Source: Patescibacteria group bacterium
Lineage (GTDB): Bacteria > Patescibacteriota > Microgenomatia > UBA10105 > UBA927
DNA: 64,000 nucleotides
Assembly (NCBI GenBank): GCA_038062795.1
Contig: JBBTWM010000033.1
Span: 5,615-69,614, forward strand
Direction: 5' to 3'
Shown: piece after piece, positions 8,768 through 63,462 of the stretch
Layout: each line of letters opens with the position of its first letter
Position numbering within the stretch: position 1 is the first letter of the stretch
Made by a program: the position numbers and the translations under genes
Notes under the pieces: generated by a model
Told to the model about the DNA's origin: nothing
Databases searched by the model: none
Seen by the model: only the letters and a program-made list of their open reading frames with translations

Positions 8768-8768
8768 T

Positions 8769-39712: not shown

Positions 39713-40496
39713 ACTGCTTTCTCTTATTATTCCGGTATATCATCAGGAGCGGACTATCCGGAAACAACTTCAGAATATCATCGGTGAGCTTGAGTTGCTC
39801 GCGACTCCATATGAGGTAATTGTCGTAGTCGACGGCCTGGATGACAAATGCTTCGAAGAAGCCAAAAAAGTTCACTCGGACAAGATCACCGTTACCGGAT
39901 ACAAAACGAATCACGGGAAGGGGTACGCGGTACGTTTCGGTATGGGGAAAAGCCACGGTGATGTTATCGGATTCTTAGATGCCGGTGGGGATTTGAGTGA
40001 GTTGGGATTGTCCATGATGACGGAGCATTATAAATGGTATAACGCAGATATTATTATCGGGAGCAAACGCCACCCGGTATCCAAAGTCGCGTACCCAATT
40101 GCGAGGAAAATTTTATCCTGGGGATATCAACAACTGGTGCGTTTGTTATTCGGCCTCAACGTGAGAGACACCCAAGTCGGCATGAAACTGTACCGCAGGG
40201 AAGTGTTGGAAGATGTACTCCCCAGACTCGTAGTTAAGCAATTTGCTTTTGACATAGAGATTTTGGCGGTTGCATATCATTTGGGGTACCGGCGCATTTT
40301 CGAAGCACCGGTCGAACTGGATTTTACCGGAGCTTCCAGCATTACCTCTATGGGGGTGTGGAAAACCATATGGAACATGCTCTGGGATACATTCGCCGTG
40401 TATTACCGACTGCACATATTGCATTATTATGATAATCTCAACAAGCGGAAATGGAAGTTTGACAAAGAGCTTAATTTCAACGTCTCTGTCCCGTAA
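39693..40496 (+). CDS. family 2 glycosyltransferase
   Basis: LSLIIPVYHQERTI...VIVVVDGLDD. Confidence 0.7.
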   Translation: MRSKNIKLLSLIIPVYHQERTIRKQLQNIIGELELLATPYEVIVVVDGLDDKCFEEAKKVHSDKITVTGYKTNHGKGYAVRFGMGKSHGDVIGFLDAGGDLSELGLSMMTEHYKWYNADIIIGSKRHPVSKVAYPIARKILSWGYQQLVRLLFGLNVRDTQVGMKLYRREVLEDVLPRLVVKQFAFDIEILAVAYHLGYRRIFEAPVELDFTGASSITSMGVWKTIWNMLWDTFAVYYRLHILHYYDNLNKRKWKFDKELNFNVSVP

Positions 40497-40506
40497 AGGA
40501 AATAGT

Positions 40507-41535
40507 ATGAACATTGTTATAACCGGCGGGGCCGGATTTATCGGATGTAATGCTGCGGCGTATTATCTGGCAAAAAAAGCAGATGTTATCGTCTTTGACA
40601 ACCTCTCCCGTGCAAATACCGATAAAAATCTTGCCTGGCTGAAAACGCTCGGGGGCAATCTTACCTATATAAAGGGAGATTTGCGTTCTATTGCTGATAC
40701 AGCCAAGCTTATTTCGTTTCTTGCGGATGCTGATGCAGTGCTTCATTTGGCTGCGCAAGTTGCCGTAACCACGTCGGTTATAAACCCACGGGAAGATTTC
40801 GAAATCAATGCAGTGGGCACATTTAATCTATTGGAAGCGATGCGGGCATCCGAAAGTCGGGCTAAGCTCATTTATTCTTCGACAAATAAAGTCTACGGAG
40901 GTATGGAGGATGTTGCAGTCGAGGAAAAGGACACTCGGTATGATTACGCAAATCTTCCGTACGGTGTGAGTGAAGATCGGCAGTTAGACTTTCACTCCCC
41001 ATACGGTTGTTCCAAGGGAGCTGCTGATCAGTATGTCCATGATTATGGCAGGATATACGGACTAGATACCGTCGTCATGCGTCAATCCTGTATTTATGGT
41101 CCCCGGCAGTTTGGTGTAGAAGATCAGGGGTGGGTCGCATGGTTTATCATCGCAACGGCATTGGGGCATAAATTGGCAATCTACGGAGATGGTAAGCAAG
41201 TGCGGGATCTTCTGTATGTCGATGATCTTATCGCAGCATACGATATGGCTATTCTAGCCGGTAAGAAAACCCGTGGAGGAATGTATAATATCGGAGGAGG
41301 GCCGAATAATACGCTTTCCGTTTGGCATGAGTTTGGTCCGATGCTGGAAAAGCTTTTCGGCAAAAAAATTCCGGTAACTCATGAGGACTGGCGCCCGGGA
41401 GATCAGAAAATATTCGTGGCAGACATCCGTAAAGCAAAAAAAGAATTCGGATGGGAGCCACGTGTGTCAGTAGAAGCTGGTATTGAGAAACTTTACATGT
41501 GGGTCAGCGCAAACAAAACGCTTTTTCGCTCCTAA
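40507..41535 (+). CDS. NAD-dependent sugar epimerase, CDP-paratose 2-epimerase (tyvelose epimerase)-like
   Basis: GGAGFIGCN..., SSTNKVYG, PYGCSKGAADQYV and RQSCIYGPRQFGVEDQGWVAWF closely match the CDP-tyvelose 2-epimerase / ADP-heptose epimerase branch of the SDR family. Confidence 0.6.
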   Translation: MNIVITGGAGFIGCNAAAYYLAKKADVIVFDNLSRANTDKNLAWLKTLGGNLTYIKGDLRSIADTAKLISFLADADAVLHLAAQVAVTTSVINPREDFEINAVGTFNLLEAMRASESRAKLIYSSTNKVYGGMEDVAVEEKDTRYDYANLPYGVSEDRQLDFHSPYGCSKGAADQYVHDYGRIYGLDTVVMRQSCIYGPRQFGVEDQGWVAWFIIATALGHKLAIYGDGKQVRDLLYVDDLIAAYDMAILAGKKTRGGMYNIGGGPNNTLSVWHEFGPMLEKLFGKKIPVTHEDWRPGDQKIFVADIRKAKKEFGWEPRVSVEAGIEKLYMWVSANKTLFRS

Positions 41536-46322: not shown

Positions 46323-47510
46323 ATGATTTCACTTATCAAATCTACATTTTATAACGAAAAGAAAACGAAGCAGCAATTATGTAAATTTATCAGCAGCGCC
46401 GATAAATTAAGCATCGGAAAACAATGCAGAATTTTTGAACAAAAATTCGCGGCATACCAGGATCGGGCGCATTGTCTGTTCGTCAATAGCGGCAGCTCCG
46501 CTAATCTTGCGTTAATACAGGCTTTATTGAACCTAGGGAGGATAAAAAAAGGTGATGCAATTGGATTTTCCGCTTTGACGTGGTCCACCAACGTTATGCC
46601 GCTTATTCAATTGGGACTCACCCCCGTTCCGGTTGATATAGAACTTGATACATTGAACGTGTCGTCCCACACGCTGGAAGAAGCACTGGCGCGACAACCG
46701 ATCAAGCTTTTATTTCTGACAAATTTATTAGGTTTTTGCGATGATATCGATGTCATATCCGATATTTGTCGAAAGCGGAATATACAACTGATAGAAGACA
46801 ATTGTGAGTCGTTGGGTACGGTTTACAAAGGCAAAAAATTAGGAAATTGGGGATTAGCTAGCACCTTTTCGTTTTATGTAGGGCACCACATGTCAACGAT
46901 TGAGGGAGGCGCAGTCGTTACTGACGATAACGATCTTATCACCATGCTGCATCTGGTCCGGGCACACGGGTGGGATAGGAATCTGACCGAAGACAAGCAG
47001 CTGTTTTTGCGTGTCAAGCATAACGTCAACTCAACATTTTATTCCCGGTATACATTTTATGATCTCGGATATAATTTCAGAACGACGGAGATCCAGGGCT
47101 TTTTGGGGAATAACCAGCTTCAGTATCTTCCAGATATTATCCGTAAGAGGGAGCGCAACTTTTTTTATATGGCAAAGCCGATTTATGCACGCGATGATCT
47201 TTATTTTCCGATACGGTACGATCATATAGAGACCGTGTCTAATTTCGCCGTTCCGATTATTTGCCGTTCACAGAAGATACGCGATGCGTTGGTCAAAGCA
47301 TGCGATCGTAATATCGAAATCAGGCCTGTGGTAGGCGGAGACATGACGAAACAGCCATTTTTCAGTAAATATCAAAAAACTTCTAAAAAGTCATTCACGC
47401 AAAATGCTGAACTGGTGCATACGCAGGGGTTATATTTCGGAAATAACCCCGATCTGACAGTGAAAGAAATGAAAACGATTATCGATATATTTACTACATT
47501 GAGGGTTTAA
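46323..47510 (+). CDS. DegT/DnrJ/EryC1/StrS-family PLP/PMP enzyme, probable sugar 3-dehydrase (E1/RfbH-like) rather than aminotransferase
   Basis: The SFSFYVGHHMSTIEGGAV block has His-His where aminotransferases have the Schiff-base Lys. This matches the CDP-6-deoxy-D-xylo-4-hexulose-3-dehydrase (E1) signature F..HH.T..EGG. Confidence 0.55.
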   Translation: MISLIKSTFYNEKKTKQQLCKFISSADKLSIGKQCRIFEQKFAAYQDRAHCLFVNSGSSANLALIQALLNLGRIKKGDAIGFSALTWSTNVMPLIQLGLTPVPVDIELDTLNVSSHTLEEALARQPIKLLFLTNLLGFCDDIDVISDICRKRNIQLIEDNCESLGTVYKGKKLGNWGLASTFSFYVGHHMSTIEGGAVVTDDNDLITMLHLVRAHGWDRNLTEDKQLFLRVKHNVNSTFYSRYTFYDLGYNFRTTEIQGFLGNNQLQYLPDIIRKRERNFFYMAKPIYARDDLYFPIRYDHIETVSNFAVPIICRSQKIRDALVKACDRNIEIRPVVGGDMTKQPFFSKYQKTSKKSFTQNAELVHTQGLYFGNNPDLTVKEMKTIIDIFTTLRV

Positions 47511-47513
47511 ATT

Positions 47514-48491
47514 ATGGATACGTTTTGGACTGGTAAAAAAGTATTGGTAACCGGTGGAACGGGTTTTATCGGTAGCCATGTGGTAGAAAAACTGGTTGAC
47601 AGAAAGGCAGTGGTAACCGTATTGGATCGAATGAGGAATGGTATTATAAAAAATATTAGCAATCTTAAAGATACGGCGAAATTCGTCCCGGGGGACTGTA
47701 CGGACCTGGAAACGTCAAGAAAAGTCGTTGCAGGTCAGGAGATCGTAATGAATCTTGCTGCCCACGTAGGAGGCATAGCCTACAACCAAGACCATCAGGC
47801 GTCATTGCTGAGGGATAATATGCTCATTGCATCGACTATGCTGGAGGCGGCCCGTCTTGAGCATACTGAAAGATTTCTGGTTGTTTCCTCCGCATGTGTC
47901 TATCCGCATGACGCAAAAATTCCCACAGCGGAAACCGAAGGATTTCGTGGGGAGCCTGAGCCGACAAACGGAGGGTATGGATGGGGCAAGCGCATGGCAG
48001 AAAAACTCGGTATGTACTATGCACATCAGTATGGGATGAAAATCGGAATTGTGCGCCCATACAACGCATACGGACCGCGCGATCACTTTGATCCGAAGAC
48101 GTCACATGTGATCCCCGCCCTTATTAAGCGTGTTTTCGATGGTGAAAATCCGGTAGTCGTATGGGGCAGCGGAAAGCAATCGCGGGCGTTTCTTTATGTC
48201 GAAGATCTGGCGGAGGGTATGATTGCAGCTATAGAAAAATATCCTGTTCCTGATCCGGTGAATTTGGGAACTGACGAAGAAATAACTGTTGCTGATCTTA
48301 TACAGTCGATTATCAAAATATCCGGTATGAATTCTTCCTATACGCTAGATACTACCAAGCCTGATGGCAGTCCGCGTCGAAACAGCGACAACACGAAAGC
48401 GAAAGAAAAAATTGGATTTATAGCTCCTACCCGATTACTCGAGGGTCTCAAGAAGACTGTTGACTGGTATAAAAACAATGAAGGTAAATAA
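47514..48491 (+). CDS. NAD(P)-dependent sugar epimerase/dehydratase (SDR, extended)
   Basis: VLVTGGTGFIGSH, YGWGK (YxxxK) and SSACVYP. The N-terminal FWTGKKVLVTG resembles the start of CDP-glucose 4,6-dehydratases, but the rest fits only a generic WcaG-like SDR. Confidence 0.6.
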   Translation: MDTFWTGKKVLVTGGTGFIGSHVVEKLVDRKAVVTVLDRMRNGIIKNISNLKDTAKFVPGDCTDLETSRKVVAGQEIVMNLAAHVGGIAYNQDHQASLLRDNMLIASTMLEAARLEHTERFLVVSSACVYPHDAKIPTAETEGFRGEPEPTNGGYGWGKRMAEKLGMYYAHQYGMKIGIVRPYNAYGPRDHFDPKTSHVIPALIKRVFDGENPVVVWGSGKQSRAFLYVEDLAEGMIAAIEKYPVPDPVNLGTDEEITVADLIQSIIKISGMNSSYTLDTTKPDGSPRRNSDNTKAKEKIGFIAPTRLLEGLKKTVDWYKNNEGK

Positions 48492-49650
48492 CCGCTATTC
48501 GGGCTCGCGAATTGTCATCGTTAGTCATATTTACACCACAGGCCCCTCACATATGTTGGAGTGTTACCTGCGAAATAAAGGTGCCGAGGTATTGTTTTTA
48601 GGACACCCATTTCATTTTGCACCGGAACCCCGTTCTCACTATCGCTGGTCCCAGAGCGGCAAGACCGGAGAAAATCATTATGTTAATTTATTTTTTCGAA
48701 ATGATGTTATAAACGTAATAAAAGACAGTCTACTGACGTTATGGTGTGTGATGAAGAGCGGAAAATTCGATGCATACGTCGGTATCGACGGAGTCAATGC
48801 TGTTATGGGTGTGCTGCTAAAAAAATTGGGAATTGTTCGGCGGGTAATTTATTACACTATCGATTTTGTCCCGAAGAGATTTTCATTTGCTCCTCTTAAT
48901 GCGCTTTATCTCTGGCTAGACCGCGTAGCTGTCTCTGGCAGCGACATTGTTTGGAATCTCTCAGGCAGGATGACACAGGAGCGGGAAAAATACGGATTGT
49001 CCAAAGCATATCGAAGTAAGCAGCATGTTGTGCCAATGGGAACCGAAGGGTTTCAGAAAAAGGGCAGCCGGGATACCTATCGGAAAAACAGCATCGCGCA
49101 CATGGGGCATCTCGTTCCTGTGCATGGCGTGTCGCTTCTCATTCAAGCGTTGCCTGAAATTGTGAAAAAAGTGCCGTCTGCACATCTCGAAATTCTTGGA
49201 GGCGGCCCTGAAGAGGACGATCTGAAACGTTTGGCGAGCCAGATGAATGTAGCTAGATACATAACTTTTCACGGATATATAAAAAGCCATGATGAATTGC
49301 TTACGATGTTATCCGAATGCGCAGTAGGTGTCGCTCCCTATGTTGACAGCGCTGATAGCTTCATCAGGAATTCGGATCCGGGCAAAGTAAAGGCTTATTT
49401 GGATGCCGGATTGCCTGTAATTGTTACCAAAGTTCCCGATGTTTGGCGGGAACTCGAGAAGTATAAGGCAGGTGTCGGTATTGAGTACGATATTCATGCT
49501 CTTTCTGATGCGGTGATATGGATTTTGTCCGATGAAAAAAGGCTATCAACATACAGGGAAGGAGCTAATGTTATGTCTCGTAAATACCGATGGGAAAATA
49601 TTTATACAAAGGCGCTGAGTTTTATTGACTTGGGCAGCAGGATGCCATAG
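48478..49650 (+). CDS. GT-B glycosyltransferase-like protein (GT4-related), paralog of 51491
   Basis: The C-terminal half shows a Rossmann-like pattern (HLEILGGGPEEDDLKRL). The distinctive N-terminal block YYTIDFVPKRFSFAPLNALYLWLDRVA is shared with the 51491 gene. Confidence 0.5.
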   Translation: MKVNNRYSGSRIVIVSHIYTTGPSHMLECYLRNKGAEVLFLGHPFHFAPEPRSHYRWSQSGKTGENHYVNLFFRNDVINVIKDSLLTLWCVMKSGKFDAYVGIDGVNAVMGVLLKKLGIVRRVIYYTIDFVPKRFSFAPLNALYLWLDRVAVSGSDIVWNLSGRMTQEREKYGLSKAYRSKQHVVPMGTEGFQKKGSRDTYRKNSIAHMGHLVPVHGVSLLIQALPEIVKKVPSAHLEILGGGPEEDDLKRLASQMNVARYITFHGYIKSHDELLTMLSECAVGVAPYVDSADSFIRNSDPGKVKAYLDAGLPVIVTKVPDVWRELEKYKAGVGIEYDIHALSDAVIWILSDEKRLSTYREGANVMSRKYRWENIYTKALSFIDLGSRMP

Positions 49651-49679: not shown

Positions 49680-50675
49680 ATGAAAAAAGCAAGCAAAAAT
49701 ATCAAGACTGCGTTAGTATGCGGAGCCGGAGGATTTATCGGCGGACACCTCGTGAAGCGCCTCAAGAAAGAAGGCTATTGGGTGAGGGGGGCAGATATCA
49801 AGCGGCATGAATACAGCAAAAGTCAGGCAGACGAGTTTTTGGTAGGGGACCTTCGTGATCAGAATTTTTGCAAAAAAGTGTTTAACCGTCCGCTTGATGA
49901 GGTCTACCAGCTTGCGGCAGATATGGGAGGAGCAGGGTATATTTTTACCGGCGATCATGATGCCGACGTGATGCACAATTCTGCACAAATAAATCTCAAC
50001 GTTTTGCATTTTGGGAGACTCGCAAAAATTAAAAAGATATTTTTTTCTTCCTCAGCATGTATTTATCCTGAACGGAACCAGATGGATGCCAGTAAGCCGA
50101 ATTGTGAGGAATCATCAGCCTACCCTGCGGCCCCCGACAGCGAGTACGGATGGGAAAAGATTTTCAGCGAACGGCTATATCAGGCGTTTCGGAGAAATTA
50201 CGATATGGAGGTGCATATTGCGCGTTTTCATAATATTTTTGGCCCTGAAGGAAGCTGGAATAACGGCAAAGAAAAGTCTCCTGCAGCCATCTGCCGCAAA
50301 GTAGCTCAGGCCCAAAACGGGGGCACTATAGAAATGTGGGGGGATGGCAAACAGACGCGTTCTTACCTTTACATAGATGAGTGTCTTGAGGGTGTCCGGA
50401 GACTGATGAATAGCAAATTTTCCGGACCGGTCAACATAGGGTCGGAAGAGATGGTAAGTATCAATAAGCTCGCCGAAATGGCAATGCAGATAGCAGGAAA
50501 AAAACTGAATATTAAGCATATCAAAGGACCCTTGGGAGTACGCGGAAGATCCTCAGATAATAGATTAATCAGAAAACAGTTAGATTGGGAACCGACGAGC
50601 AAGTTGTTAGACGGCCTCACCAAAACGTATACATGGATAGACGAACAGGTCAAACATCATCGCAAGGACAAATAA
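49680..50675 (+). CDS. GDP-mannose 3,5-epimerase (GME) homolog
   Basis: Long collinear motif matches to plant GME: AADMGGAGYI, SSACIYPE, HNIFGPEGSWNNGKEKSPAAICRK, EMWGDGKQTRSYLYIDECLEGVRRL, PVNIGSEEMVSINKLAEM and GVRGRSSDNRLIRKQLDW. Confidence 0.7.
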   Translation: MKKASKNIKTALVCGAGGFIGGHLVKRLKKEGYWVRGADIKRHEYSKSQADEFLVGDLRDQNFCKKVFNRPLDEVYQLAADMGGAGYIFTGDHDADVMHNSAQINLNVLHFGRLAKIKKIFFSSSACIYPERNQMDASKPNCEESSAYPAAPDSEYGWEKIFSERLYQAFRRNYDMEVHIARFHNIFGPEGSWNNGKEKSPAAICRKVAQAQNGGTIEMWGDGKQTRSYLYIDECLEGVRRLMNSKFSGPVNIGSEEMVSINKLAEMAMQIAGKKLNIKHIKGPLGVRGRSSDNRLIRKQLDWEPTSKLLDGLTKTYTWIDEQVKHHRKDK

Positions 50676-50682
50676 TACAACT

Positions 50683-51504
50683 ATGCAGACAAACTTAGTT
50701 ATCGGTTCCGAGGGATTTATCGGCACGCCCTTTTGCCGTTTCCTCGAAGGAAAAGGAGAAAAAGTTATCCGTTTTGATATCAGACGGGACAAAGAAGAAG
50801 ATGCCCGATTTGTAAAGCTTCCGTTTTCGAACGTCGATAAAGTATATTTTCTCGCATGGGACGTAGGCGGGAGCAAATACCTCTACGAGCCCAAACTTCA
50901 AAAAAACCAGCTTGATTGGAATCTTTCGCTCATGAAAAACGTATTTGACCAGCTGGAGAAAGCCAAAAAACCGTTCGTTTTTATTTCGAGCCAGTTATCT
51001 GAAGAAGTCGATACGGTATATGGGGTAACGAAACGGTTGGGTGAGGTGTGGACCGATCTTTTAGGAGGCAAATGCGTACGTGTATGGAATGCCTATGGAT
51101 ATATGGAGGGGCAGGATGTGAAGAGTCACGTGATTTCTGACTTTATCTATCAGGCGCTCAAAACTAAAAAAATTACGATGATGACCAATGGCACTGAATG
51201 GCGTCAGTTTACCCATATTACCGATTTATCCAATGCTTTTTATATGGCACTCAATTCCAATGGACTACGGAAAATCGTATATGACGCGAGCAGTTACGAA
51301 TGGGTCCAGATTATTGACATGGCCAACATGATTGCCGAGTTTACCGGAGCCACAGTTGTCCCGGGCACCAAAATCGGTCATGACCCAATTGCCTCGCCAA
51401 ACAGAGGACGAATTCCCGGATGGTTGCCGACTATCGAGCTTCGGGACGGGATCCACGCGATGGTTGAAGAGGCTAAGCTCCGGATAAAGAATGAAAAACG
51501 CTAA
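50683..51504 (+). CDS. NAD(P)-dependent epimerase/reductase (short SDR)
   Basis: LVIGSEGFIGTPF...YGVTKRLGE. It is 273 aa, the size class of 4-ketoreductases and dTDP-rhamnose-reductase-like enzymes. Confidence 0.5.
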   Translation: MQTNLVIGSEGFIGTPFCRFLEGKGEKVIRFDIRRDKEEDARFVKLPFSNVDKVYFLAWDVGGSKYLYEPKLQKNQLDWNLSLMKNVFDQLEKAKKPFVFISSQLSEEVDTVYGVTKRLGEVWTDLLGGKCVRVWNAYGYMEGQDVKSHVISDFIYQALKTKKITMMTNGTEWRQFTHITDLSNAFYMALNSNGLRKIVYDASSYEWVQIIDMANMIAEFTGATVVPGTKIGHDPIASPNRGRIPGWLPTIELRDGIHAMVEEAKLRIKNEKR

Positions 51505-52726
51505 CCTCGGCTTCAACAAAGACACTTCCGTTTTGTTTGCAACTTTCTCACTATGGGCAAACGGGAAACGCATGCCAACAAACGGTAGTGTGGAACCGCT
51601 TCGGGATTTTTTAGTTCCCAAAATAAAGAAATTAGTCCTGATTGACCAGTTGGTTCCCGGTGGAGAAGATGTTGCCTATAAAATTGAGGTATACACCAAC
51701 GGAAACATGAAGTGTGATACGCCCGATCCGTCATGGTGGTATGCCTGGTTTCGCCCCTGGCTTACATGGACAAACCGTAACGGAACGCAAATATCATTTA
51801 AAATCCGCGATTTTCTTTCTGTTGTCGATTGGCCCTTCCGTACGAACACTACCTATGATTACCTTATCGGTTTGGAAAGTATAAACGCGCTTGCCGGTAT
51901 CCTGCTTCGTCACTTCGGAAAAGTACGAAAAGTGGTATATTACGTTTCCGACTATTCTCCTGCAAGGTATCCCAATAAGCTGTTTAATGCCTTATATTTG
52001 GCACTTGATCGCTATTGTGCGAGGCATGCGGATTACATTTGGGATGTGTCCGATGCAATGCAGAAAGCGCGTATTGCGGCAGGGCTAGATCCTCAAACAT
52101 CAGCACCGGTTATCCATGTTGCAAATGGGTTATTTCCCGATCAGATAATCCCTGGTCATCCGAAGCAAAATAATATCCACGCATTGGCATACATGGGGAC
52201 GGTTGGACCCGAAAATGGGCCAGATGTGGCTATAGAAGCGCTGGCTATTGTACGAAAAAAATATTCAGACGCGGTGTTGCACATGATCGGGGGTAAACCT
52301 TCTGATTTTGCATGGCTTCTTCCGATAATTAAAAAGTTAGACTTGGAGCGCGTAGTGATTCACCATGGGTTTGTACCTAAGGCGGCGGATATGGCAAAAA
52401 TTATGAATGCATGTTCGATAGGCCTTGCACCATACAGAGCTATATCTGGTTCGCCCAGATACTACGGTGACGCAGGGAAAATACGTGCGTATGCAGGGGC
52501 TGGGTTGCCAATTATATGTTCTTCTGTCCCACCGTTGGGAAAGGAAGCTGCCGAACAGGGAGCGGCTATCGTTACCAACGACGATGCCCAGAGCATCGCA
52601 AAAATGGTAATGCAACTATTTTCTGATTCAGAATACTATACATCCTTACAGGAAAATGCGCGAAAGTTTGCAAAAAATAATACCTGGGAAAATCAATTTA
52701 TGTCAGCATTCACACGCATGAAATAG
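51491..52726 (+). CDS. GT-B glycosyltransferase-like protein (GT4-related), paralog of 48478
   Basis: YYVSDYSPARYPNKLFNALYLALDRYCARHADYIW aligns with the 48478 protein. The C-terminal domain is Rossmann-like. Confidence 0.5.
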   Translation: MKNANLGFNKDTSVLFATFSLWANGKRMPTNGSVEPLRDFLVPKIKKLVLIDQLVPGGEDVAYKIEVYTNGNMKCDTPDPSWWYAWFRPWLTWTNRNGTQISFKIRDFLSVVDWPFRTNTTYDYLIGLESINALAGILLRHFGKVRKVVYYVSDYSPARYPNKLFNALYLALDRYCARHADYIWDVSDAMQKARIAAGLDPQTSAPVIHVANGLFPDQIIPGHPKQNNIHALAYMGTVGPENGPDVAIEALAIVRKKYSDAVLHMIGGKPSDFAWLLPIIKKLDLERVVIHHGFVPKAADMAKIMNACSIGLAPYRAISGSPRYYGDAGKIRAYAGAGLPIICSSVPPLGKEAAEQGAAIVTNDDAQSIAKMVMQLFSDSEYYTSLQENARKFAKNNTWENQFMSAFTRMK

Positions 52727-52794: not shown

Positions 52795-53424
52795 ATGATG
52801 AAATCATTGTTGCCCTATTTTTATAATCTTACATATTTCAAAGTATTGGAATGGAATTTACGGGACTGCCGTAATGTTTTAGATGTTGGTTGCGGAAGCG
52901 ATTCACCGATAGGACATATCCCACATACATTTATTTCCGAAGGAATTGACGCATACAAAAAATCAATCGATAAAAGTAAAAAGAAGAAATTGCATGATCA
53001 TTACCGGATAGGCAATATAATGAAGCTAAATTCATTTTATAAAAGGAAAAGTTTCGATGCGGTTGTTTGTCTGGATGTTATTGAACATCTTAAGCCTAAA
53101 GATACTGTGAAACTGATTCATCTCATGGAGAGTATTGCGATAAAAAAAGTAATCCTTCTTACCCCAAACGGTTTTTATCATCAACATGCACTTGAAGGAA
53201 ATATATATCAGGTGCATCAATCAGGTTGGAAAGCTGGTGATCTAGCAGATTTAGGATATAAAGTTTTCGGTTTGCGGGGATTGCAATTGTTGCGTGATGA
53301 TCACGCGTCAATAAAGTATCGCCCATGGATTTTTTGGGGATTTTGCTCATTTATTTCGGAAATTATTTTTTACCCATTCCCCGGCTTCTGTTTTGATTTA
53401 TTTGCGGTGAAAAACATGCGTTAA
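52795..53424 (+). CDS. class I SAM-dependent methyltransferase
   Basis: VLDVGCGSDSP...VVCLDVIEHL. Confidence 0.65.
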   Translation: MMKSLLPYFYNLTYFKVLEWNLRDCRNVLDVGCGSDSPIGHIPHTFISEGIDAYKKSIDKSKKKKLHDHYRIGNIMKLNSFYKRKSFDAVVCLDVIEHLKPKDTVKLIHLMESIAIKKVILLTPNGFYHQHALEGNIYQVHQSGWKAGDLADLGYKVFGLRGLQLLRDDHASIKYRPWIFWGFCSFISEIIFYPFPGFCFDLFAVKNMR

Positions 53425-53425
53425 T

Positions 53426-56400
53426 ATGATGCGATTGCAGTCATTTCGAAAAATAATATTTGACATAGTTGTTATTGCGTTTATTTCGCTTATTCCGCTA
53501 TTTTGGTTTCCGAATGGGTACATTGTAACTGGTCATGATGCAGGATATCCCATAAACATCCAGGAAACATTTCGCAATAGACTATTTACTTGGAACAGCC
53601 AGCAAAATTTTGGAATTGACAATACCCCCAATGTCGGTGCTGTTCCAATTCATGCCATTGAGGCAGTGTTTTATGTCATGGGAGCGTCACCTGCCCAAGC
53701 ACAGCAATTTTCTTTTATGTTTTGGCTTTTTCTCATGATGGCTTCGATGTATACGCTAGCTTATTCGTTTCAACGGGACATTCCATATCGATTTTTTCCT
53801 CTTATCGCTTCTGTATTGTATGTTGTAAATTTTTTTCTCCTTGCACTGTGGCGCTATGGTGCTGCGACAACATTTTCCGCCTACTGCGCCCTCCCGATAA
53901 TACTCGCTCTCGTTATTGCTGCGCTTCAAAATAGAATTCCGGTACTAAAAGCCGGTATAGCTATTTCATTTGCTGCCATGGTCTTTAACGGTGGAGGAGG
54001 GTTGAGTCTCCCGCTGTTCGGAGCATTACTTATCAGTGTTCTGAGTGCCATAGTGTATTTTGCCGCCTTAGAGGGGAAAAACGGGTGGAAAGTCATAGTT
54101 TGGAAAACCATGTATCTTGGTCTCTGTATCATAATACTGTCGGCGATACTTAACGCCTACTGGCTATTCCCGTTCATTCATTACGCAACATCCAACTTTG
54201 CCCGCGGTCTCGAAGCAAACGGCGGAGCAGCGGGGGTTTTGGCATGGACAGATTCCGTGAGCAAATACACGAGTTTGATAAACCTATTCCGTTTACAGGG
54301 AATTCCTGAGTGGTACGATAACGCAGTTCACCCGTTTTCCAATGCGTATTTAACAAACCCGCTGTTAATCGGCGCCAGCTTTCTCTTTGCCCCTCTTGCC
54401 TACGCGTCGTTGTTATTCGCAAATGAAATCCGCCAAAAACAACTGATACTTTATTTTGTGCTGTTGTCCCTGATTGCCGCATTTTTTTCTGCAGGTACGC
54501 ATGCTCCCACGGGATGGTTATTTGCACAATTTATGCTTCATGTGCCCGGATTTGTCATTTTCCGCTCAGCACAATATAAATTTGTGCCTGCACTCTATTT
54601 ATCGTTTGCGATTCTTATTTCTTTTTCCCTAAATTATCTTATTTATAAAACCCCAGTATGGGAAAAATTTAAAGCAATATCTCCTCGATTATTACGCACA
54701 TCTGCGGTTTTTATATGCATCCTTGTTGTACTTGGGTACCATTGGCCGTATTTTCGGACGGAATTTTTTCAATACAGTCCTCCCTTAACGACGCTTTTAA
54801 AAGTTCCTGACTACGTACTTGCATATGACGAGTGGATCGACGATCACTTGGACGACGATAAGAGAACATTAATTTTGCCCCTTTACAATTCTTCATGGAA
54901 AGCGGCAGTATATTCGTGGAAATATTTCAGTTTGTACAGCCTGTTTAATATTATCCGACCGAAACCGTTTCTGGAGCATTCGCAAATGCTTAGCGGAAGC
55001 CAGCTTGCTTTGATGGAACGCTTTTCTCATGAGATTCTTCATCAAGGCCCCCTGGCGCGACAGTTTGCTGAGTTCTTGGGTGTCCGTTACATATTATTGA
55101 CCGGCGATGTAGATTTTTCCCTCAGAGGAATGCTTACGGAGAATCCTGCTGATTATAAAAAAGCGCTATCAAACTATCCCGTGTTGTGGACGAATGGACC
55201 ATGGCAACTCTATGAGGCCCCGAGTGTTACGGACACAAAGCCGTTATATTATATAAAATCGCTGACGCAGTACATAGGTAGAGAGCCAGACATTACCGGT
55301 GTTGTGATAAACGGGGCAAATAATTTTTTTCATCAGTATGACAAATCACATCCGATGGCGGTTGCCATAAGCCGCGATATTCCTATATCAAATACGATCG
55401 AAGCATTGCTGTGCGATTCATGCGTTATGGAAACGGCTGTAAATAAAATTGAAGTGCCCCACAGCCTTATATTGCCTGGATCAATTTTTTATACGCTCAA
55501 GCAATGGAAAGAAAAACCGCTGGAGCATGAGAGCCTGCCAGAGTCCCAATTGATTATAAACAAGCTGGGCTTGTCCCTTAAGCGCGTGTCGGATATTGCT
55601 TCATTAGTCCAACTGAATAAAAGCGAACGCAGCATCATGGTAACAGCCGACACGTTGATGGCATATTGGAAATATATAGAAGAAAAAGTAACGACCGGCG
55701 AAAATTCAGAGCCCGATTATTCGCTTCTGCACAGAATCGAAGGGTATGTTTTATCGGAAAAAGAAGTCCTGTTGAAGGCATATGGCGAATCAAAAAGCGG
55801 CGGTGTCCGTCAGCGTCTTATTTCGGTCATTAACAAACTTACGCAAATTGAAGTTGCAATTGTCGGTGTCCGGAACAAAACGTCTATTCTGAAGCAGTAC
55901 CGCGTGTCGCAAGTCGCTCAAAATGCTGAGTTTTTTCTGGATGCCGATTCACTTTCGAAAGATGTAAATCAATCGTATATATATCCGATGGCAATGGAGT
56001 TCAATGGTAAATCATTAGGGATTACCCCTGTGGCAGAGAATGAGCGCGTGTCGTTGGGCACGTTTGATTTGCGCGGAGTTGATCGGATAACCCTTCGTTT
56101 CCCCCAGCCTGCGAATGTATTGATAAATCGCCGCGTAGAGTCTGTCGTCGCATTCGGTACAACAAATTTCTGTATTGTCGGGGAGGCGGGAAATTTCAAT
56201 AGGAATAAAAGTTATAGAATACATATGCCTGATCCCTCCGGAACTCCTGAAGGAGCTGCGATCCATGTTGTTAGAAAAAAGAACTCTGTAACAAAGGATG
56301 AGGGAACATCGATAAATTATTTTACCAATCCTGACGTCACGTTTTCTATAAACCGGACGGCAACCGTACCGCAAAATTATTATTTTTCCGGAATAGACGG

Positions 56401-56947
56401 GGACATCGGGGTGACAGTATATTACTGTGCCTCAACGCAGATGACACAAGCGGGCGAGAGAGAGGACATATCTCTCGAGGAGATAGCTGCGCCAAGCCTT
56501 TTTATCAGCGCCCATGAACAATATGCATCAAACGCGCGAGTGGAAAATGCATCGTATACTCGCGTAGATCAAACCAAATACTATGTAGAATCGAATCAGG
56601 AGGCATGGCCTACGATATTGGTATTTAATCAGAACTACGACCGGAAGTGGAAGCTCTACGACATACAGGGTGATAACGGCCTCAATTCCTACCTGCCGGC
56701 GATTATGGAAACATGGTTTCAAAAGCCAATTGTGGAAAGCGATCATTTTGCAGTGAACGGGTACGCAAATGCCTGGTTATTGCGCAGCGAACCGTCAGGA
56801 AGGCTCGTGCTTGAATATTATCCGCAGCAGCTTCTCTACAAGGGCATCGTGGTAACAATAGCCAGTTTCGTTATACTTATAAGTGTGTATATGACAAATG
56901 GGAAGCGCGACAAACGGGAATCATTAACACAAATAGGAGCAGTATGA
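53426..56947 (+). CDS. very large (1173 aa) membrane protein: N-terminal polytopic GT-C-like domain plus ~700-aa extracytoplasmic domain
   Basis: The first ~480 aa are multi-TM with a TGHDAGYPIN loop motif. The remainder is hydrophilic with one C-terminal TM segment (VVTIASFVILISVYM). Confidence 0.45.
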   Translation: MMRLQSFRKIIFDIVVIAFISLIPLFWFPNGYIVTGHDAGYPINIQETFRNRLFTWNSQQNFGIDNTPNVGAVPIHAIEAVFYVMGASPAQAQQFSFMFWLFLMMASMYTLAYSFQRDIPYRFFPLIASVLYVVNFFLLALWRYGAATTFSAYCALPIILALVIAALQNRIPVLKAGIAISFAAMVFNGGGGLSLPLFGALLISVLSAIVYFAALEGKNGWKVIVWKTMYLGLCIIILSAILNAYWLFPFIHYATSNFARGLEANGGAAGVLAWTDSVSKYTSLINLFRLQGIPEWYDNAVHPFSNAYLTNPLLIGASFLFAPLAYASLLFANEIRQKQLILYFVLLSLIAAFFSAGTHAPTGWLFAQFMLHVPGFVIFRSAQYKFVPALYLSFAILISFSLNYLIYKTPVWEKFKAISPRLLRTSAVFICILVVLGYHWPYFRTEFFQYSPPLTTLLKVPDYVLAYDEWIDDHLDDDKRTLILPLYNSSWKAAVYSWKYFSLYSLFNIIRPKPFLEHSQMLSGSQLALMERFSHEILHQGPLARQFAEFLGVRYILLTGDVDFSLRGMLTENPADYKKALSNYPVLWTNGPWQLYEAPSVTDTKPLYYIKSLTQYIGREPDITGVVINGANNFFHQYDKSHPMAVAISRDIPISNTIEALLCDSCVMETAVNKIEVPHSLILPGSIFYTLKQWKEKPLEHESLPESQLIINKLGLSLKRVSDIASLVQLNKSERSIMVTADTLMAYWKYIEEKVTTGENSEPDYSLLHRIEGYVLSEKEVLLKAYGESKSGGVRQRLISVINKLTQIEVAIVGVRNKTSILKQYRVSQVAQNAEFFLDADSLSKDVNQSYIYPMAMEFNGKSLGITPVAENERVSLGTFDLRGVDRITLRFPQPANVLINRRVESVVAFGTTNFCIVGEAGNFNRNKSYRIHMPDPSGTPEGAAIHVVRKKNSVTKDEGTSINYFTNPDVTFSINRTATVPQNYYFSGIDGDIGVTVYYCASTQMTQAGEREDISLEEIAAPSLFISAHEQYASNARVENASYTRVDQTKYYVESNQEAWPTILVFNQNYDRKWKLYDIQGDNGLNSYLPAIMETWFQKPIVESDHFAVNGYANAWLLRSEPSGRLVLEYYPQQLLYKGIVVTIASFVILISVYMTNGKRDKRESLTQIGAV

Positions 56948-57315
56948 TGGAACGTCTAAGACCGATACAACACGCGTTTGAACAAAAAATTCTCGCATAC
57001 GGGCAGGCTCATGTGTTTGAGCTGGAAATATTTGCGGTAGCTATACTTGCTGTGGCCCTAATTGGGAAAATTCCGTATCTCAACATAGTTATTACAAAGC
57101 AAATTTCTTTGCTGCTGCTTATTGTTTTTGGGGCATATTTATTTCAGATAAAAAAACAGGTGTTATTAACCTTTTCATTGTTATTATTTGCGTGCGCACT
57201 TGTGTTGTCTCTTGCAGGAAAAATGGACTCAGCTGAATCTATAGGCACTATCATATATGCATTACTATGGTTTGTGGCAATGCTTTATGTTAAGGATATA
57301 TGGCGGCAAATATGA
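56944..57315 (+). CDS. small membrane protein (3-4 TM), hypothetical
   Basis: 123 aa, hydrophobic, with ATGA overlap to the upstream gene. Confidence 0.35.
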
Positions 57316-57908
57316 ACAAATATTTTTCTATACTTGCAAGAAAAGGATTTGTTGAGTGTGTTGTCGGCGCAGTATCGATAAGTGTTATGAAACTATACTC
57401 TCTCGTGCAATCTGTTTTTTTGAATACGCGCGGATACGGCATAGGATCCGGCGTTATAGTGAGTCCCACAGCAGTTTTCTTTCAAAGCAGAAGTAGAGCT
57501 ATCTCGGTCGGGCGAAACACTCGAATCGGGAGAAATACGAGAATTAATGCAGGATTTGACGGAAAAATAAACATTGGCGCAAATGCACATATAGATGATG
57601 GTACGTTTATTATGGCCCAGGAGGATATACGCATAGGCAGCGATACGTGGATAGCCGGGTGTTGTTTTATTACCGACTTTAATCATTCATTTGAAAAAAG
57701 GAACATAAAAATATCAGATCAGGGATATGAAACGAAGCCGGTACGTATAGGCGCAGATGTTTGGATAGGTACGCACAGCGTCATATTACCTGGTGTCACA
57801 ATAGGCGATGGGGCAGTCATTGGGGCAGGATCGATTGTGACCAAGAGTGTACCCCCATATGCGGTAGTTGCAGGAAACCCTGCGAAGATCATAAAACTAA
57901 GAAAATGA
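57300..57908 (+). CDS. hexapeptide-repeat (LbH) O-acetyltransferase, maltose/galactoside acetyltransferase-like
   Basis: Repeated [LIV]G..x..I hexads: [63 protein letters not shown]...[10 protein letters not shown]. An alternative ATG lies at 57312. Confidence 0.75.
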
Positions 57909-60898
57909 ATTTCTTACGTAAGCACGCATTTGTTATATTCATTGGGTTTGTTATTGCATTCCTGTATCACAACTGGTTTTCCAAAGGGTTATTGACTGCT
58001 CCTGATTTTTCCTATATATCCCCGTTGCAACTGCATGATCTGAAAGATCTTCCGTTTGCTTGGTCGAGCATGTTTGGTTCAGGACTCGGGGGATCGACCT
58101 TTAATATTCTGAATTTAGAAACGTACTTACATCTTGGTGTTCAATTGGTAGTTTTTCTGATGCATATACCATGGAACGCAGCATATCGAATTCTTTTCTT
58201 TTGGCCGTTTCTTCTCATTGGCTCCGTTTCATCATTTTATTTCTGCCATGAAATATTGAAGCACAAGGCTATTTCCGCATTGGGAATGCTTATCTACATG
58301 ACGAACACCTACGTACTGATGCTGGCGGGTGGTGGGCAGGTAGGGCTAATGATGGCCTATGCGTTCGCTCCATTAGTACTAGCGAGTTTTATAAAGAGGA
58401 ATACGGTGTTATTTATTTTTTCGACTGCAATGCTTTTGTTGTTTGATTTGCGATTCAGCTTTCTTATCGCCGGAGTGATAATGTTATATTCGTTATTTAT
58501 TATTCCGAGGAGAGAATGGGCCTCTCTCATGTTGTGGTGTATAGTTCCGCTGCTTATTGTTATCGGAATTCATAGCTTTTGGATTATTCCTACGGTATTT
58601 GGCGGCGGGTTGGCTTTGCCGGAGGGATATGGAAGTTCCGATTGGCTCAAATTTTTAAGCTGGGCGGAATTTTCAAAATCCCTTTCATTGCTTCACCCGA
58701 ATTGGCCGGAAAATATATTTGGTAAAACCTATTTTTTTCAGCCGGAGTTTATAGGGATTCCGATTGTCGCGTTTAGCTCGTTTTTGTTTATACGATCTCC
58801 AAAACAGAAAACGACCCGTCAGCATATCTTATTCTTTTCTCTATTAAGTTTAGTTGGTATATTTTTTTCGAAAGGGATTAACCCGCCTTTTGGTGGTGTG
58901 AATGAATGGTTTTTTTTGCACGCGCCTTTTTTTAATGGATTTCGGGATCCCACCAAGTTTTATTTGATAACTATTATTTCTTATAGCGTCCTTATCCCGT
59001 TTGCACTTTTAAATATTTCGGATTTATTAAAGGTGAAACTTCTAAAATACAGGAACATTATGTCACCCGTAACGTTGGTAATATTTTTAGGGCTATGGTT
59101 GGTAACGATACGTGCACTTGTCGTTGGAGATGTCGGCGGAACGTTCGGAAAATTAACCGTTCCAACGGCATATGATGATTTTGGTAAATTCGTTTATTCC
59201 AATAATTCCTTCGGACGGACATTGGTCGTTCCATGGAAAAACAGATTTGTATTTCAGTCGGAAAATCATCCCGTGGTGAATGCGAGGGATGTATTTCAGA
59301 CGACAGATATAGAGCGCATTGCTGCATTGTTTCGTGAACCGTCGACAGAAATGAAATTAAGGCAACTCGCGGTTAAATATGTCGTTGTACCGGATGATTT
59401 CACTAATGAGATTTTTCTAAATGACAGATCCCCTGATCCCGAGTTGCGGTCGCGCGTCGTAGGCATATTAGATAAGCTGCCTTATCTGGACAAAATAAAG
59501 AGATTTGACGGATTAGATTATTATGAATTTACAAAGTTTACCGGCCATTTTTTTACTATATTACCCAATCTGGATGCCGCGGTGTATGTACATCGTAAAA
59601 TAAGTCCTGTGACATATTCGGTTGATGTCACGTTGTCTCAACGACCTGTCGATGTCATATTTTCTGAAGCGTATGATCCTACTTGGGAGCTTTGGGATGG
59701 AGAAAAAATAGTTCACCCTCATAAAACGCCGGATGGAGTTATGGCATTCTCCATAGACTCGGATATAACCGGACAGCTTACTGTTCATAATACGAATCAG
59801 AGGTGGGTCGACTTAGGATATACGACGACATTGGTTGTGCTGATACTGATCATCTTGTTGGGGTATGTCCTATTGTGCAGGAGGTACCGTCTAGGATTTA
59901 AGATACATGCGGTGTTGCTGACTGTTGGAGTCAGTCTATATTTTATTTTCGTACAGAAAGATACGTCTCTCCATGCGTTATACGACAAGGATATTCTGTG
60001 GTCAACCGAGTGGCGACATTTATACAATCCAATTCTAGACAAATCGCTTATGGTGTCCCGTTATGGAGGCGCTGAAATAAGATTTCGCGTTCGTAATAGC
60101 AAGGAAATAGTGATACAAGCAGCGAGCTCCAACGATGAGGCGCATATACAGGGCATTGATGTGACAATAGACGGAAAAACCACAACGCTGGAAACTCCAA
60201 TCTACGATGCCAGGATGACTGTCGGTACGGCAGACTCTTTAAAGAAGCCGGTCGATGTAGTTATAAGGCATTGGTGCGCTGGGACAATGGGACCGTGTGA
60301 CTTGGCTATTACAGATATCCAGATCGATAAAGGAGCTTCTATTGAACCATCTGGACAGCATCAGAAAAAAATATTGGCTGTGTTAGGGGACTCGATCTCA
60401 GTTTCGTTTGGTAATCTGAATTATACTTATGCTCTTGTGGAAAAGCTTGGATATCGTTTGCATAACGCATCTATTTTTGGATCGACTATCGTTGAGGCGC
60501 AAGGTTGGGACTGGAGTATGAGCCGCTATCGCAAGGATATTATCGCCTACAAGCCTGATGTGTTGCTTATATTTTTGGGAACGAACGATTTATTGCACGA
60601 TAAACAGATTTTCCGCAATAATTATAATTCGATGCTCGGTGAGATCAAGGAGAAAAGTCCGAACACAAAAATTATTTCTTTTGGGTTATTACGAAGAAAA
60701 GACTTTACTTGGTTCCAAGTCACCAACGTTAGCAGAATAATTGCGTCTATTGCCGAAGAGAATAACGTCCAGTATGTTGATCCGTATAATTGGTTAGATG
60801 AAAATGACCTGCAGGACGTAGTGCATCCTTCTCCAAAGAGTCAACAAAAATTAGCCGATAGAATGTACGAGGCATTGTCTCAGGTTGTCGCTAATTGA
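57905..60898 (+). CDS. large membrane protein with C-terminal SGNH/GDSL hydrolase domain
   Basis: The N-terminal ~650 aa are polytopic. The C-terminus has GDSL block I ([10 protein letters not shown]), block III GTNDLL, and block [15 protein letters not shown] (the DxxH catalytic dyad). Confidence 0.6.
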
Positions 60899-60938: not shown

Positions 60939-62495
60939 ATGAACATGAGTAAGGTAACTGGTAAAAAGACTTCTCGGTATTTTCTATTTCTTTTATTTCT
61001 GTTGTTTGCAGTATTCCTTGCCGTAGTATTCCGGCTTTATCAGCGGATAGGCGTTTTTGGGTGCGGCGATGAGTGTATCAATTACACGGCTGGCTACTTT
61101 ATCCTCCTGGGCAAATCGCTTTACAGTCAAATATTTTTTAATCACCAACCGACATTGGCGTTTATAAGCACTTTCATACAATGGGTGTCACAGCCGAAGG
61201 ATCTCTATCATCTCGTGCTCTACCACAGGGTATTTATGATTTTATACTCGTTTGGTATGGCGGTGTTTCTGATTTGGCGTTTTCGGCTGCGCGCCATGTT
61301 ATTTTTACTTCTTTATGAAGGGACGAAATACTACATGTACGGATATCAATTTATCGGGGAGGCGCTTATCGTTTACCCGCTTGTATATCTTATCGGAGTA
61401 TTGTGGGAATCCTTCGAATTTAAACGAGTATCCCGAGTAGATATTTTTCTTACGGCAATCTTCACGAGTTTAGTGATTTGGACACGGGAGCCGTATGTGC
61501 CGGTAGCGGTAGTACTCGGCGGTATGCTTCTTTGGCGGGAGAAATCAAATCGGTATGCCCGCTGGGCAAGCGTTCTTATTATTTTCCTTTTGCTCGCGCC
61601 CTTTATCGTCATCCCTTTTGGGGAATACGTGTATCAGGTTATTGTCATTAACATCCCGGCGGCTAGCTCTGTGGTCGGTGGAGGGAATAGGATTTCATCT
61701 ATATTGTATTCGCTGCTCTATCCTATATTGTTGTTTTTCCATGGTAAATGGAGCTATTTGAGGTTGATAGAAATTGGTATCGCTTCATTTTTTTGGGTTA
61801 GTCTGGTTATTTGGTGGCGGGGAACCAAAAAATATACTCCGATAGGCATTTTGCTTCTTATCCTGGGACTTGCGGGTATTAGGACGGTAGCACCGGGAAC
61901 CATGTACTTTGAAGCGTTTCACATGCTCCCGTGGTATGCATTATTTGTCATGGTTACCGTATTGATCATGACCTCAATAAAAGAAAAAAAGATTCAGAGC
62001 ATATTAGTTGGTGCGTTTGTTATTTTTTTCTGTTGGGCATTTGCCTCGCCACAGTCATTTATATGGGAAAATGTGGATACGCGAGGCGAATTTGCGAGCC
62101 AATATTCCCAATATACCCAGTATTCTCAGGCGATACAAATAGCCATAAAGCCTTCTCAGACTCTATTTTTGGATGTGTGGGACGACATTATCTATTGGGA
62201 GGCCAAACGCACCTCTTCATACCCGTTAAGTATCTATATACCGGCGGAAAGTTCGATACCCAGGTATCAGGAAATGCGCAGTGCTATGTTTCTCGAGTCA
62301 CCTCCTGATGCGTATTACAGTTGTCCCGTTGCACAAACGCTCACGAACAGTCCTCCGCAGGTTGTGAAGCAGGATTATGTGCAGCTTTCCAGCATTGGTA
62401 AACCCAGCTGCTTGTATATCAAGAAGGTGATAGCAAAAGCGCTCACCCCGGATCAGTGGCAGCGACTTCATGATCTGGGATTTTCTCAACTGTAG
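60939..62495 (+). CDS. polytopic membrane protein, family A paralog (DE..HQP motif)
   Basis: GDECINYTAGYFILLGKSLYSQIFFNHQPT aligns with the 12891 protein. The ATG at 60939 is preferred over the TTG at 60885. Confidence 0.45.
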   Translation: MNMSKVTGKKTSRYFLFLLFLLFAVFLAVVFRLYQRIGVFGCGDECINYTAGYFILLGKSLYSQIFFNHQPTLAFISTFIQWVSQPKDLYHLVLYHRVFMILYSFGMAVFLIWRFRLRAMLFLLLYEGTKYYMYGYQFIGEALIVYPLVYLIGVLWESFEFKRVSRVDIFLTAIFTSLVIWTREPYVPVAVVLGGMLLWREKSNRYARWASVLIIFLLLAPFIVIPFGEYVYQVIVINIPAASSVVGGGNRISSILYSLLYPILLFFHGKWSYLRLIEIGIASFFWVSLVIWWRGTKKYTPIGILLLILGLAGIRTVAPGTMYFEAFHMLPWYALFVMVTVLIMTSIKEKKIQSILVGAFVIFFCWAFASPQSFIWENVDTRGEFASQYSQYTQYSQAIQIAIKPSQTLFLDVWDDIIYWEAKRTSSYPLSIYIPAESSIPRYQEMRSAMFLESPPDAYYSCPVAQTLTNSPPQVVKQDYVQLSSIGKPSCLYIKKVIAKALTPDQWQRLHDLGFSQL

Positions 62496-62520
62496 CGAAT
62501 TGCTATGGTACAATATCCGT

Positions 62521-63462
62521 ATGATGAAAGGCACAGTGGTCGTGACCGGGGGAGCTGGATTTATCGGTAGTCATCTGGTCGATGCACTGCTTGCCAGGGG
62601 TCACAAAGTATACGCGCTTGATAATCTCATTACCGGAAACGAAGAAAATCTTGCAGAGGCGAAAAAACACCCGGAGTTCACCTTCATCAAATATGACGTG
62701 ATAAACGAGTTGCCCGTTTTAGGGCAAATTGATTATATCTATCATCTTGCTTCTCCTGCGTCCGTCCCAGATTATCAGAAATATCCGGAAGAGACAGCGC
62801 TTGTAAACACCGTTGGTACGAGGGCGCTCCTGAAAGTTGCCAAAGCGCACGGGGCCACGTTTCTTTTTACCTCCACCTCGGAGGTGTATGGGGATCCTAA
62901 GGAACATCCCCAGAAGGAAACGTATTGGGGAAACGTAAATCCTAATGGAGTCCGCGCATGTTATGATGAATCCAAGCGCTTCGGAGAGATGATGACTATG
63001 TTATATATGCGCACATATGGCGTCGACGTGAGGATTGCCCGGATATTTAATACGTATGGCCCCAGGATGCGTCCTACCGACGGACGGGTGATATCTAATT
63101 TTGTGAACCAGGCGCTCAAGGGAGAACCCATTACGGTATATGGAGATGGTAAGCAAACGCGCTCGTTTTGTTTCATAAGCGATATGGTTGAGGGACTTGT
63201 GAGTCTTATGGAAAAGGAATTGACGAAGGGCGAAGTGGTGAATATCGGTAATCCGGAAGAATATACCATGATCGATTTGGCTCACAAGGTGAAAAAGATG
63301 ATGGGAGCTACTTCCGAAATTGTTTATACGGATTTACCATTAGATGACCCGATGCAACGAAGACCCGATATTTCAAAAGCGAAAAAATTGCTCAGCTGGG
63401 AACCCAAGGTGTCCGTAGACCAGGGACTCGAAAAAACAATTGCGTATTATAAGGCGCTGTAA
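62521..63462 (+). CDS. UDP-glucuronate decarboxylase (UDP-xylose synthase)
   Basis: VVVTGGAGFIGSHLVD, YDESKRFGE and VRIARIFNTYGPRM...GRVISNF are the UXS signature. Confidence 0.7.
   Translation: MMKGTVVVTGGAGFIGSHLVDALLARGHKVYALDNLITGNEENLAEAKKHPEFTFIKYDVINELPVLGQIDYIYHLASPASVPDYQKYPEETALVNTVGTRALLKVAKAHGATFLFTSTSEVYGDPKEHPQKETYWGNVNPNGVRACYDESKRFGEMMTMLYMRTYGVDVRIARIFNTYGPRMRPTDGRVISNFVNQALKGEPITVYGDGKQTRSFCFISDMVEGLVSLMEKELTKGEVVNIGNPEEYTMIDLAHKVKKMMGATSEIVYTDLPLDDPMQRRPDISKAKKLLSWEPKVSVDQGLEKTIAYYKAL

Follow-up and report, generated by a model that had tools for sequence, protein, structure and literature searches.

A GDP-mannose 3,5-epimerase homolog and its recurring gene partners in a Patescibacteria surface-glycan locus

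The closest structurally described system to the one reported here is the GDP-D-mannose 3,5-epimerase (GM35E, also GME; EC 5.1.3.18, CEP1/NS-SDR) of the plant Arabidopsis thaliana (AtGM35E; PDB 2C59, 2C54, 2C5A and 2C5E), an enzyme of ascorbate and cell-wall synthesis. In its numbering, the residues that define GM35E are a triad (S143, Y174 and K178), an acid–base couple (C145 and K217), R306, which acidifies the catalytic Cys, R243, which binds the diphosphate, and N203, with K217 standing where GDP-L-fucose synthase (GMER, also Fcl) has a His (PMC8787198). Among bacteria, the enzyme of Methylacidiphilum fumariolicum SolV (MfGM35E, UniProt I0K0X9; 50.5% identical to AtGM35E) is the only GM35E to have been characterised biochemically, and homologs have been implicated in the biosynthesis of bleomycin (BlmG) and A201A in actinomycetes (PMC6678494). 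Here we describe a GM35E homolog of 331 aa encoded on the plus strand (49680..50675, an ATG-to-stop open reading frame, ORF) of a 64-kb stretch of DNA from a Patescibacteria group bacterium (contig JBBTWM010000033.1), the whole of which is referred to hereafter as the window; the protein itself is called the window GME.

A sequence-only reading of the window had proposed extended collinearity between this product and plant GME on the strength of several shared motifs, and this is borne out in full. Pairwise alignment with AtGM35E gives 49% identity over 315 aligned residues, and the motifs lie where they were said to lie, each collinear with the plant enzyme (SSACIYPE at residues 124–131, HNIFGPEGSWNNGKEKSPAAICRK at residues 184–207 and EMWGDGKQTRSYLYIDECLEGVRRL at residues 218–242). 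When all PDB chain sequences were searched, the best match was 2c59, AtGM35E itself (E = 3.9e-97, 328 bits, 49% identity, query residues 5–327 against chain positions 27–345); the five top matches are all plant GMEs (E = 3.9e-97 to 4.2e-94), and the first structure that is not a GME appears only at E = 1.2e-25, a gap of ~70 orders of magnitude. A chance match of this ORF to AtGM35E is excluded. The minus-strand ORFs that overlap the gene are short shadows of 94–114 aa.

The alignment retains all eight of the GM35E-defining residues. The triad, of the form [ST]xnYx3K, is S125/Y156/K160 (aligned to S143/Y174/K178 of AtGM35E), the acid/base pair is C127/K199 (aligned to C145/K217), and R290, R227 and N185 correspond to R306, R243 and N203; the catalytic Cys, Lys and Tyr, which the sequence-only reading had left to exactly this comparison, are thus all intact. 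The NAD motif GAGGFIG (GxxGxxG) at residues 15–21 places the protein among the extended short-chain dehydrogenases/reductases (SDRs) with a Rossmann fold. Around the site of the nucleoside diphosphate (NDP), the elements EKxPAAxCRK, WGDGxQTRS and GVRGR are common to AtGM35E and the window GME and are invariant in nine homologs of 39–61% identity; in a sample of diverse GME homologs, the Cys is kept in 17 of 20, as is the Lys. The window also supplies an internal control, in that an Fcl/ColC-like epimerase–reductase encoded two genes upstream (47514–48491, plus strand; GDP-fucose synthases are its best matches, 7.6e-52) is 29% identical to the window GME, keeps the Cys and has a His aligned to K199. 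The Lys at this position is therefore a true mark of GM35E, and the window, as judged from these residues, holds both types, an Fcl-like enzyme and a GM35E-type enzyme. We consider the ORF to encode a functional GM35E-type enzyme, an NAD+-retaining extended SDR of the Patescibacteria (the candidate phyla radiation, CPR), with a probability of roughly 0.8. As an annotation this is correct and useful; the enzyme is of a known kind, would not surprise a specialist and leaves established knowledge of how GM35E works unchanged.

Comparison with the described systems reveals both close likeness and clear points of departure. AtGM35E and the window GME are collinear throughout and identical in the triad, the Cys/Lys pair, both Arg residues and the “orange-wall” Asn; the plant enzyme, however, has 377 aa with N- and C-terminal extensions that the window GME lacks, its NAD motif reads GAGGFIA where ours is the canonical GAGGFIG, and in place of a role in ascorbate and cell-wall synthesis the locus points to one in surface-glycan synthesis. 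MfGM35E, likened here by its published description, resembles the window GME in being bacterial, in its ~50% identity to AtGM35E, in sharing its catalytic residues, the conserved Arg among them, and in its gene surroundings, since each of the two has a neighbouring glycosyltransferase and methyltransferase; it differs in belonging to a thermoacidophilic verrucomicrobium and in that its authors describe no adjoining short SDR of the kind found here. GMER (Fcl, WcaG) and the GDP-L-colitose synthase ColC fall in the same SDR subgroup, use a Cys in epimerisation and act on a GDP-hexose, but GMER has a His base and is an NADPH-dependent reductase of a 4-keto-6-deoxy sugar, whereas the window GME has Lys199. 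The BlmG and A201A homologs, again likened by description, provide a glycosyltransferase with L-gulose or L-galactose (PMC6678494); they sit in secondary-metabolite clusters, whereas the locus around the window GME, which includes flippases and GT-C-like membrane proteins, is one for a surface polysaccharide or glycoprotein.

GME had been called rare in bacteria by the sequence-only reading, a statement that holds for biochemical characterisation and fails for occurrence. A protein 100% identical to the window GME is found in an NCBI “Patescibacteria group bacterium” metagenome-assembled genome and in Hainich groundwater assemblies. At E ≤ 1e-30, a word-indexed search returned at least 8000 clusters of homologs at 90% identity (the best 120 of these are 74–100% identical to the query), and an exhaustive search of 1.84 billion representatives returned 978 clusters at 50% identity. 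A scan of GTDB (one genome per species, with an alignment of 9 GME sequences as query) confirmed relatives in at least 592 species representatives from many phyla. The best 80 of these at least 592 stretches (L010–L089, referred to below as the 80 genome loci) encode GMEs that share 63–73% identity with the query, and represent Patescibacteria, Acidobacteriota, Alphaproteobacteria (among them cultured Bradyrhizobium and Methylobacterium), Bacteroidota (Emticicia), Omnitrophota, Verrucomicrobia, Planctomycetes, Deltaproteobacteria, Nitrospirota and one archaeon. Identity at this level across distant phyla is unusually high for an enzyme of a polysaccharide locus; such conservation suggests strong constraint, horizontal transfer or both. 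GM35E is thus an enzyme already known and widespread in bacteria. A literature search for GME in CPR/Patescibacteria found nothing relevant, and the lineage is one in which the enzyme had not previously been discussed. In public records this GME and most of its close relatives are unnamed or carry the generic “NAD-dependent epimerase/dehydratase”, with several among the best 120 clusters, a few of the relatives overall, named GDP-D-mannose 3',5'-epimerase by JGI.

The gene does not stand alone (all features that follow in this paragraph are on the plus strand). Only 7 nt downstream lies a compact extended SDR of 273 aa (50683..51504, hereafter the short SDR), whose stop is overlapped by 14 nt by a GT4-family glycosyltransferase of 411 aa (51491..52726; Pfam Glycos_transf_1), followed in turn by a class I S-adenosylmethionine-dependent methyltransferase of 209 aa (52795..53424). 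Immediately upstream of the GME is a second GT4 glycosyltransferase (48460..49650; 396 aa as the longest ORF, 390 aa in the gene call), which is poorly conserved (31–34% identity to its counterparts in the closest relatives, L005–L009). A promoter and terminator scan around the GME gave background levels. The short SDR has the motif GSEGFIG, S103, Y113xxxK117 and the invariant residues H149, H178, R174 and Q175; its Ser-to-Tyr spacing (S103 to Y113) is unusually short, and it has no Cys two residues past the catalytic Ser. It belongs to a well-conserved family of ~636 detectable members without a characterised relative.

The order GME, short SDR, then GT4 or methyltransferase recurs in relatives whose GME is 68–87% identical to that of the window. 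On metagenome contigs (L092–L171), a GME lies directly upstream of 16 short-SDR homologs with enough upstream sequence, on the same strand and across a gap of 0–24 nt; these comprise all 13 at ≥66% identity and three at 55–61% (L110, L111 and L142), and three further contigs at ≥66% identity that end nearby carry a partial GME at a gap of 12–39 nt. Most short-SDR homologs at ≤61% identity are without a GME and lie between a flippase and a GT2, occasionally a GT10. The short SDR was found in none of the 80 genome loci, as against its fixed pairing in the relatives; the pairing is therefore derived within one Patescibacteria subclade, and the short SDR is rejected as a universal partner of GME. 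Across the short-SDR family, a GME or Fcl-like gene lies within 4 kb in 16 of 37 long loci (two with a signature of GMD, the enzyme GDP-mannose 4,6-dehydratase), and three loci have a GT10 fucosyltransferase downstream; these neighbours hint at a link between the family and GDP-L-sugars. The GT4 at 51491..52726, for which the PDB holds no sequence homolog, has orthologs of 49–64% identity that in relatives either immediately follow the short SDR or lie a little upstream of GME, and is likely the transferase of the cassette. Counterparts of the methyltransferase (59–61% identity) follow the short SDR in L005–L009, and methyltransferases also follow the GT4 in two further relatives (L090 and L091).

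By analogy with the plant and Methylacidiphilum enzymes, Y156, K160 and S125 would oxidise C4 of GDP-α-D-mannose in an NAD+-dependent step, after which C127 and K199 would epimerise C5 and C3, with R290 tuning the Cys. The equilibrium of the GM35E reaction is unfavourable (80:15:5, with GDP-mannose favoured; PMC6678494), and because of this the product must be pulled forward. Conserved gene order suggests that the short SDR and/or the GT4 most likely drain the products and so beat this equilibrium, that the short SDR may alter the L-hexose nucleotide further, and that O-methylation by the adjoining methyltransferase would follow; the L-hexose or its derivative would then enter the large surface-glycan locus of the window. 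The sugar finally transferred may be a modified L-hexose.

The sequence-only reading took the gene to imply L-galactose or L-gulose in the glycan. This is plausible but not secure, because the adjoining short SDR may alter the product further; the short SDR always follows GME in this clade, and the nearby nucleotide-sugar genes are of CDP type. The alternative that survives best is one in which GME and the short SDR together make up a two-enzyme module. That the sugar delivered is a GDP-L-hexose modified beyond the GME step (a C4 or C2 epimer, for instance), in place of L-galactose or L-gulose, is a real contender that we hold somewhat short of even odds; we grant a similar standing to its companion claim, that GME performs a first step only and the short SDR is a new compact enzyme acting on GDP-L-sugars. 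The tight pairing at ≥66% identity and the GDP-L-sugar neighbours of the family are consistent with both, and the GME loci of other lineages that have no short SDR, together with the distant short SDRs that have no GME, show that each protein also occurs apart from the other. More tentatively, GME, the short SDR, the GT4 and the methyltransferase might constitute a dedicated module that furnishes the CPR surface with an L-hexose derivative not described before and perhaps methylated; in it, the short SDR would act as an epimerase or oxidoreductase of GDP-L-hexoses of a new, minimal type. In a bolder variant, given that the only hexose nucleotide genes nearby are those for CDP-hexoses, the CDP-tyvelose-2-epimerase-like enzyme of the locus would make CDP-mannose, and such a module could use this as its feed.

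The substrate of the window GME is probably GDP-mannose, as we infer from its 49% identity to a GDP-specific enzyme and the invariance of the diphosphate- and nucleotide-side motifs. A GDP context is also indicated by one GME homolog fused to a NodZ-like fucosyltransferase domain and by a GMD signature motif within 8 kb of GME in 6 of the 80 genome loci, the closest (L010) among them. Several observations weigh against this substrate. Pfam and NCBIfam scans of the non-shadow ORFs of at least 150 aa returned no nucleotidyltransferase (manC), phosphomannomutase (manB) or GMD in the window (the ORF at 57300–57908 was not scanned directly for NTP_transferase, phosphomannomutase or gmd models, and its counterpart in L001 has no recorded Pfam match), and a six-frame translation of the window gave no match to the same GMD signature motif; the earlier remark that neither GDP-mannose pyrophosphorylase nor GMD is present in the window thus stands. 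A literature search for guanine-contact residues of GME yielded nothing usable. The sugar-nucleotide genes that are present nearby point to CDP chemistry, among them a 342-aa SDR homologous to CDP-tyvelose 2-epimerase (40507–41535, plus strand; PDB 9rl0, 2.6e-100, and 1orr, 5.5e-97) that is 73% conserved in Patescibacteria relatives; the longest ORF here (40270–41535, beginning with TTG) makes the N-terminus too long, and the gene call on an identical contig is 342 aa. In L090, whose GME is 78% identical to that of the window, genes for a glucose-1-phosphate cytidylyltransferase (PDB 1tzf, 2.1e-57) and for a CDP-glucose-4,6-dehydratase-like SDR (together 8216–9936) lie immediately upstream of GME, the cytidylyltransferase two genes away. 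Finally, in other phyla a nucleotide-sugar 6-dehydrogenase adjoins GME in ~9 of the 80 loci (~10%) or is fused to it. These dehydrogenases pass only the generic “nucleotide sugar dehydrogenase” model TIGR03026; their linkage hints at L-hexuronate nucleotide synthesis, and some members of the GME family may have uronate substrates. These dehydrogenase-linked homologs, the NodZ-like fusion and P0129, a 704-aa protein whose GME homolog is broken up by a LAGLIDADG domain that may be an intein, are covered by proteins P0124, P0194, P0121 and P0129 and loci L010, L017, L027, L036, L062, L067, L070 and L072.

These points are the ground for a second alternative, in which the same catalytic machinery acts on another substrate, either CDP-mannose (formed from CDP-glucose by the CDP-tyvelose-2-epimerase-like enzyme) or an NDP-hexuronate. 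The reference list of a GM35E review (PMC8787198) includes work in which an enzyme of the CDP-tyvelose 2-epimerase family was used for glucose/mannose interconversion, which speaks for this alternative. We nevertheless regard this alternative as unlikely. Besides the identity and motif conservation already given, the cassettes of L090 and L091 have no tyvelose-epimerase homolog, the genes for GDP-mannose supply are commonly unlinked, and the CDP-type genes are more simply explained by a separate 3,6-dideoxyhexose branch. This branch would consist of a ColD/E1-type pyridoxamine-phosphate-dependent 3-dehydrase (46323–47510, plus strand; 1.2e-58 to ColD, 2.2e-43 to the CDP E1 enzyme) and the adjacent Cys/His epimerase–reductase (the Fcl-like paralog described above), a pair that looks like a colitose-type pathway. 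The window holds no 4,6-dehydratase or nucleotidyltransferase for such a branch, and the closest relatives, L005–L009, lack the pair and have a single SDR of 310–315 aa in its place.

That the gene is some other SDR mis-read, whether GDP-L-fucose synthase, ADP-heptose 6-epimerase, GalE or a dehydratase, is effectively refuted by these comparisons: although Pfam matches are confined to the generic families Epimerase (residues 11–254) and GDP_Man_Dehyd and the best NCBIfam match by name is GDP-L-fucose synthase, all NCBIfam equivalog scores fall far under their cutoffs, PDB matches to other SDR families reach only 1e-10 to 1e-25 against 1e-97 for plant GME, and the base is Lys199 whereas GMER uses His. 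Each candidate was rejected individually, GDP-L-fucose synthase with 109.7 bits against a cutoff of 500 (NF047922), UDP-glucose 4-epimerase (GalE) with 78.1 against 262.3 (TIGR01179; the window GME has in addition the extra Cys/Lys pair), GMD with 25 against 415 (the gmd equivalog), and ADP-L-glycero-D-manno-heptose 6-epimerase, the alternative singled out by the sequence-only reading, with 74.1 against 274.6 and 37.2 against 452 (TIGR02197 and NF008360) and a PDB match of only 1.5e-10 (3sxp). Because the NCBIfam search returned no GM35E model, thousands of sequences could be given the specific name GM35E with good confidence.

If the annotation of the window GME as a GM35E is true, ultra-small, host-dependent groundwater bacteria would build L-hexoses (L-galactose, L-gulose or derivatives of these) into the glycans on their surface. 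Sugars of this kind are not common among bacteria, and on the cell surface they could matter for host attachment or phage recognition. Candidates for new catalysts are the highly conserved Patescibacteria GME clade and the short SDR coupled to it; the only parts that merit experiment are this short SDR and the route by which a reduced genome obtains its mannose nucleotide.

The entire window is a co-directional glycan locus, with flippases, many GT2 and GT4 glycosyltransferases and several methyltransferases. Between 5397 and 36667, about a dozen large membrane proteins of 420–775 aa are encoded on both strands, with weak matches to PMT_2, PMT, YfhO or PTPS_related or with no match; these seem to be paralogs of a GT-C-like glycosyltransferase or polymerase kind, and their density is unusual for one locus. 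Downstream of the cassette, on the plus strand, lie a 1173-aa protein without a Pfam match (53426–56947) and a protein of 1045 aa whose C-terminal domain is a GDSL lipase/acylhydrolase (57761–60898). Relatives have large counterparts at this position (730–1344 aa, the latter with a GDSL domain), and the two proteins may serve glycan O-acyl handling or be surface proteins. A homolog of UDP-glucuronate decarboxylase (UDP-xylose synthase; 1.4e-106 to human UXS1) is encoded at 62470–63462 on the plus strand, while the window showed no UDP-glucose dehydrogenase. Inside the glycan locus, between glycosyltransferases and a HAD hydrolase, is a gene for a protein with a Bro-N domain (3931–4758, plus strand), a domain typical of phage and virus genes.
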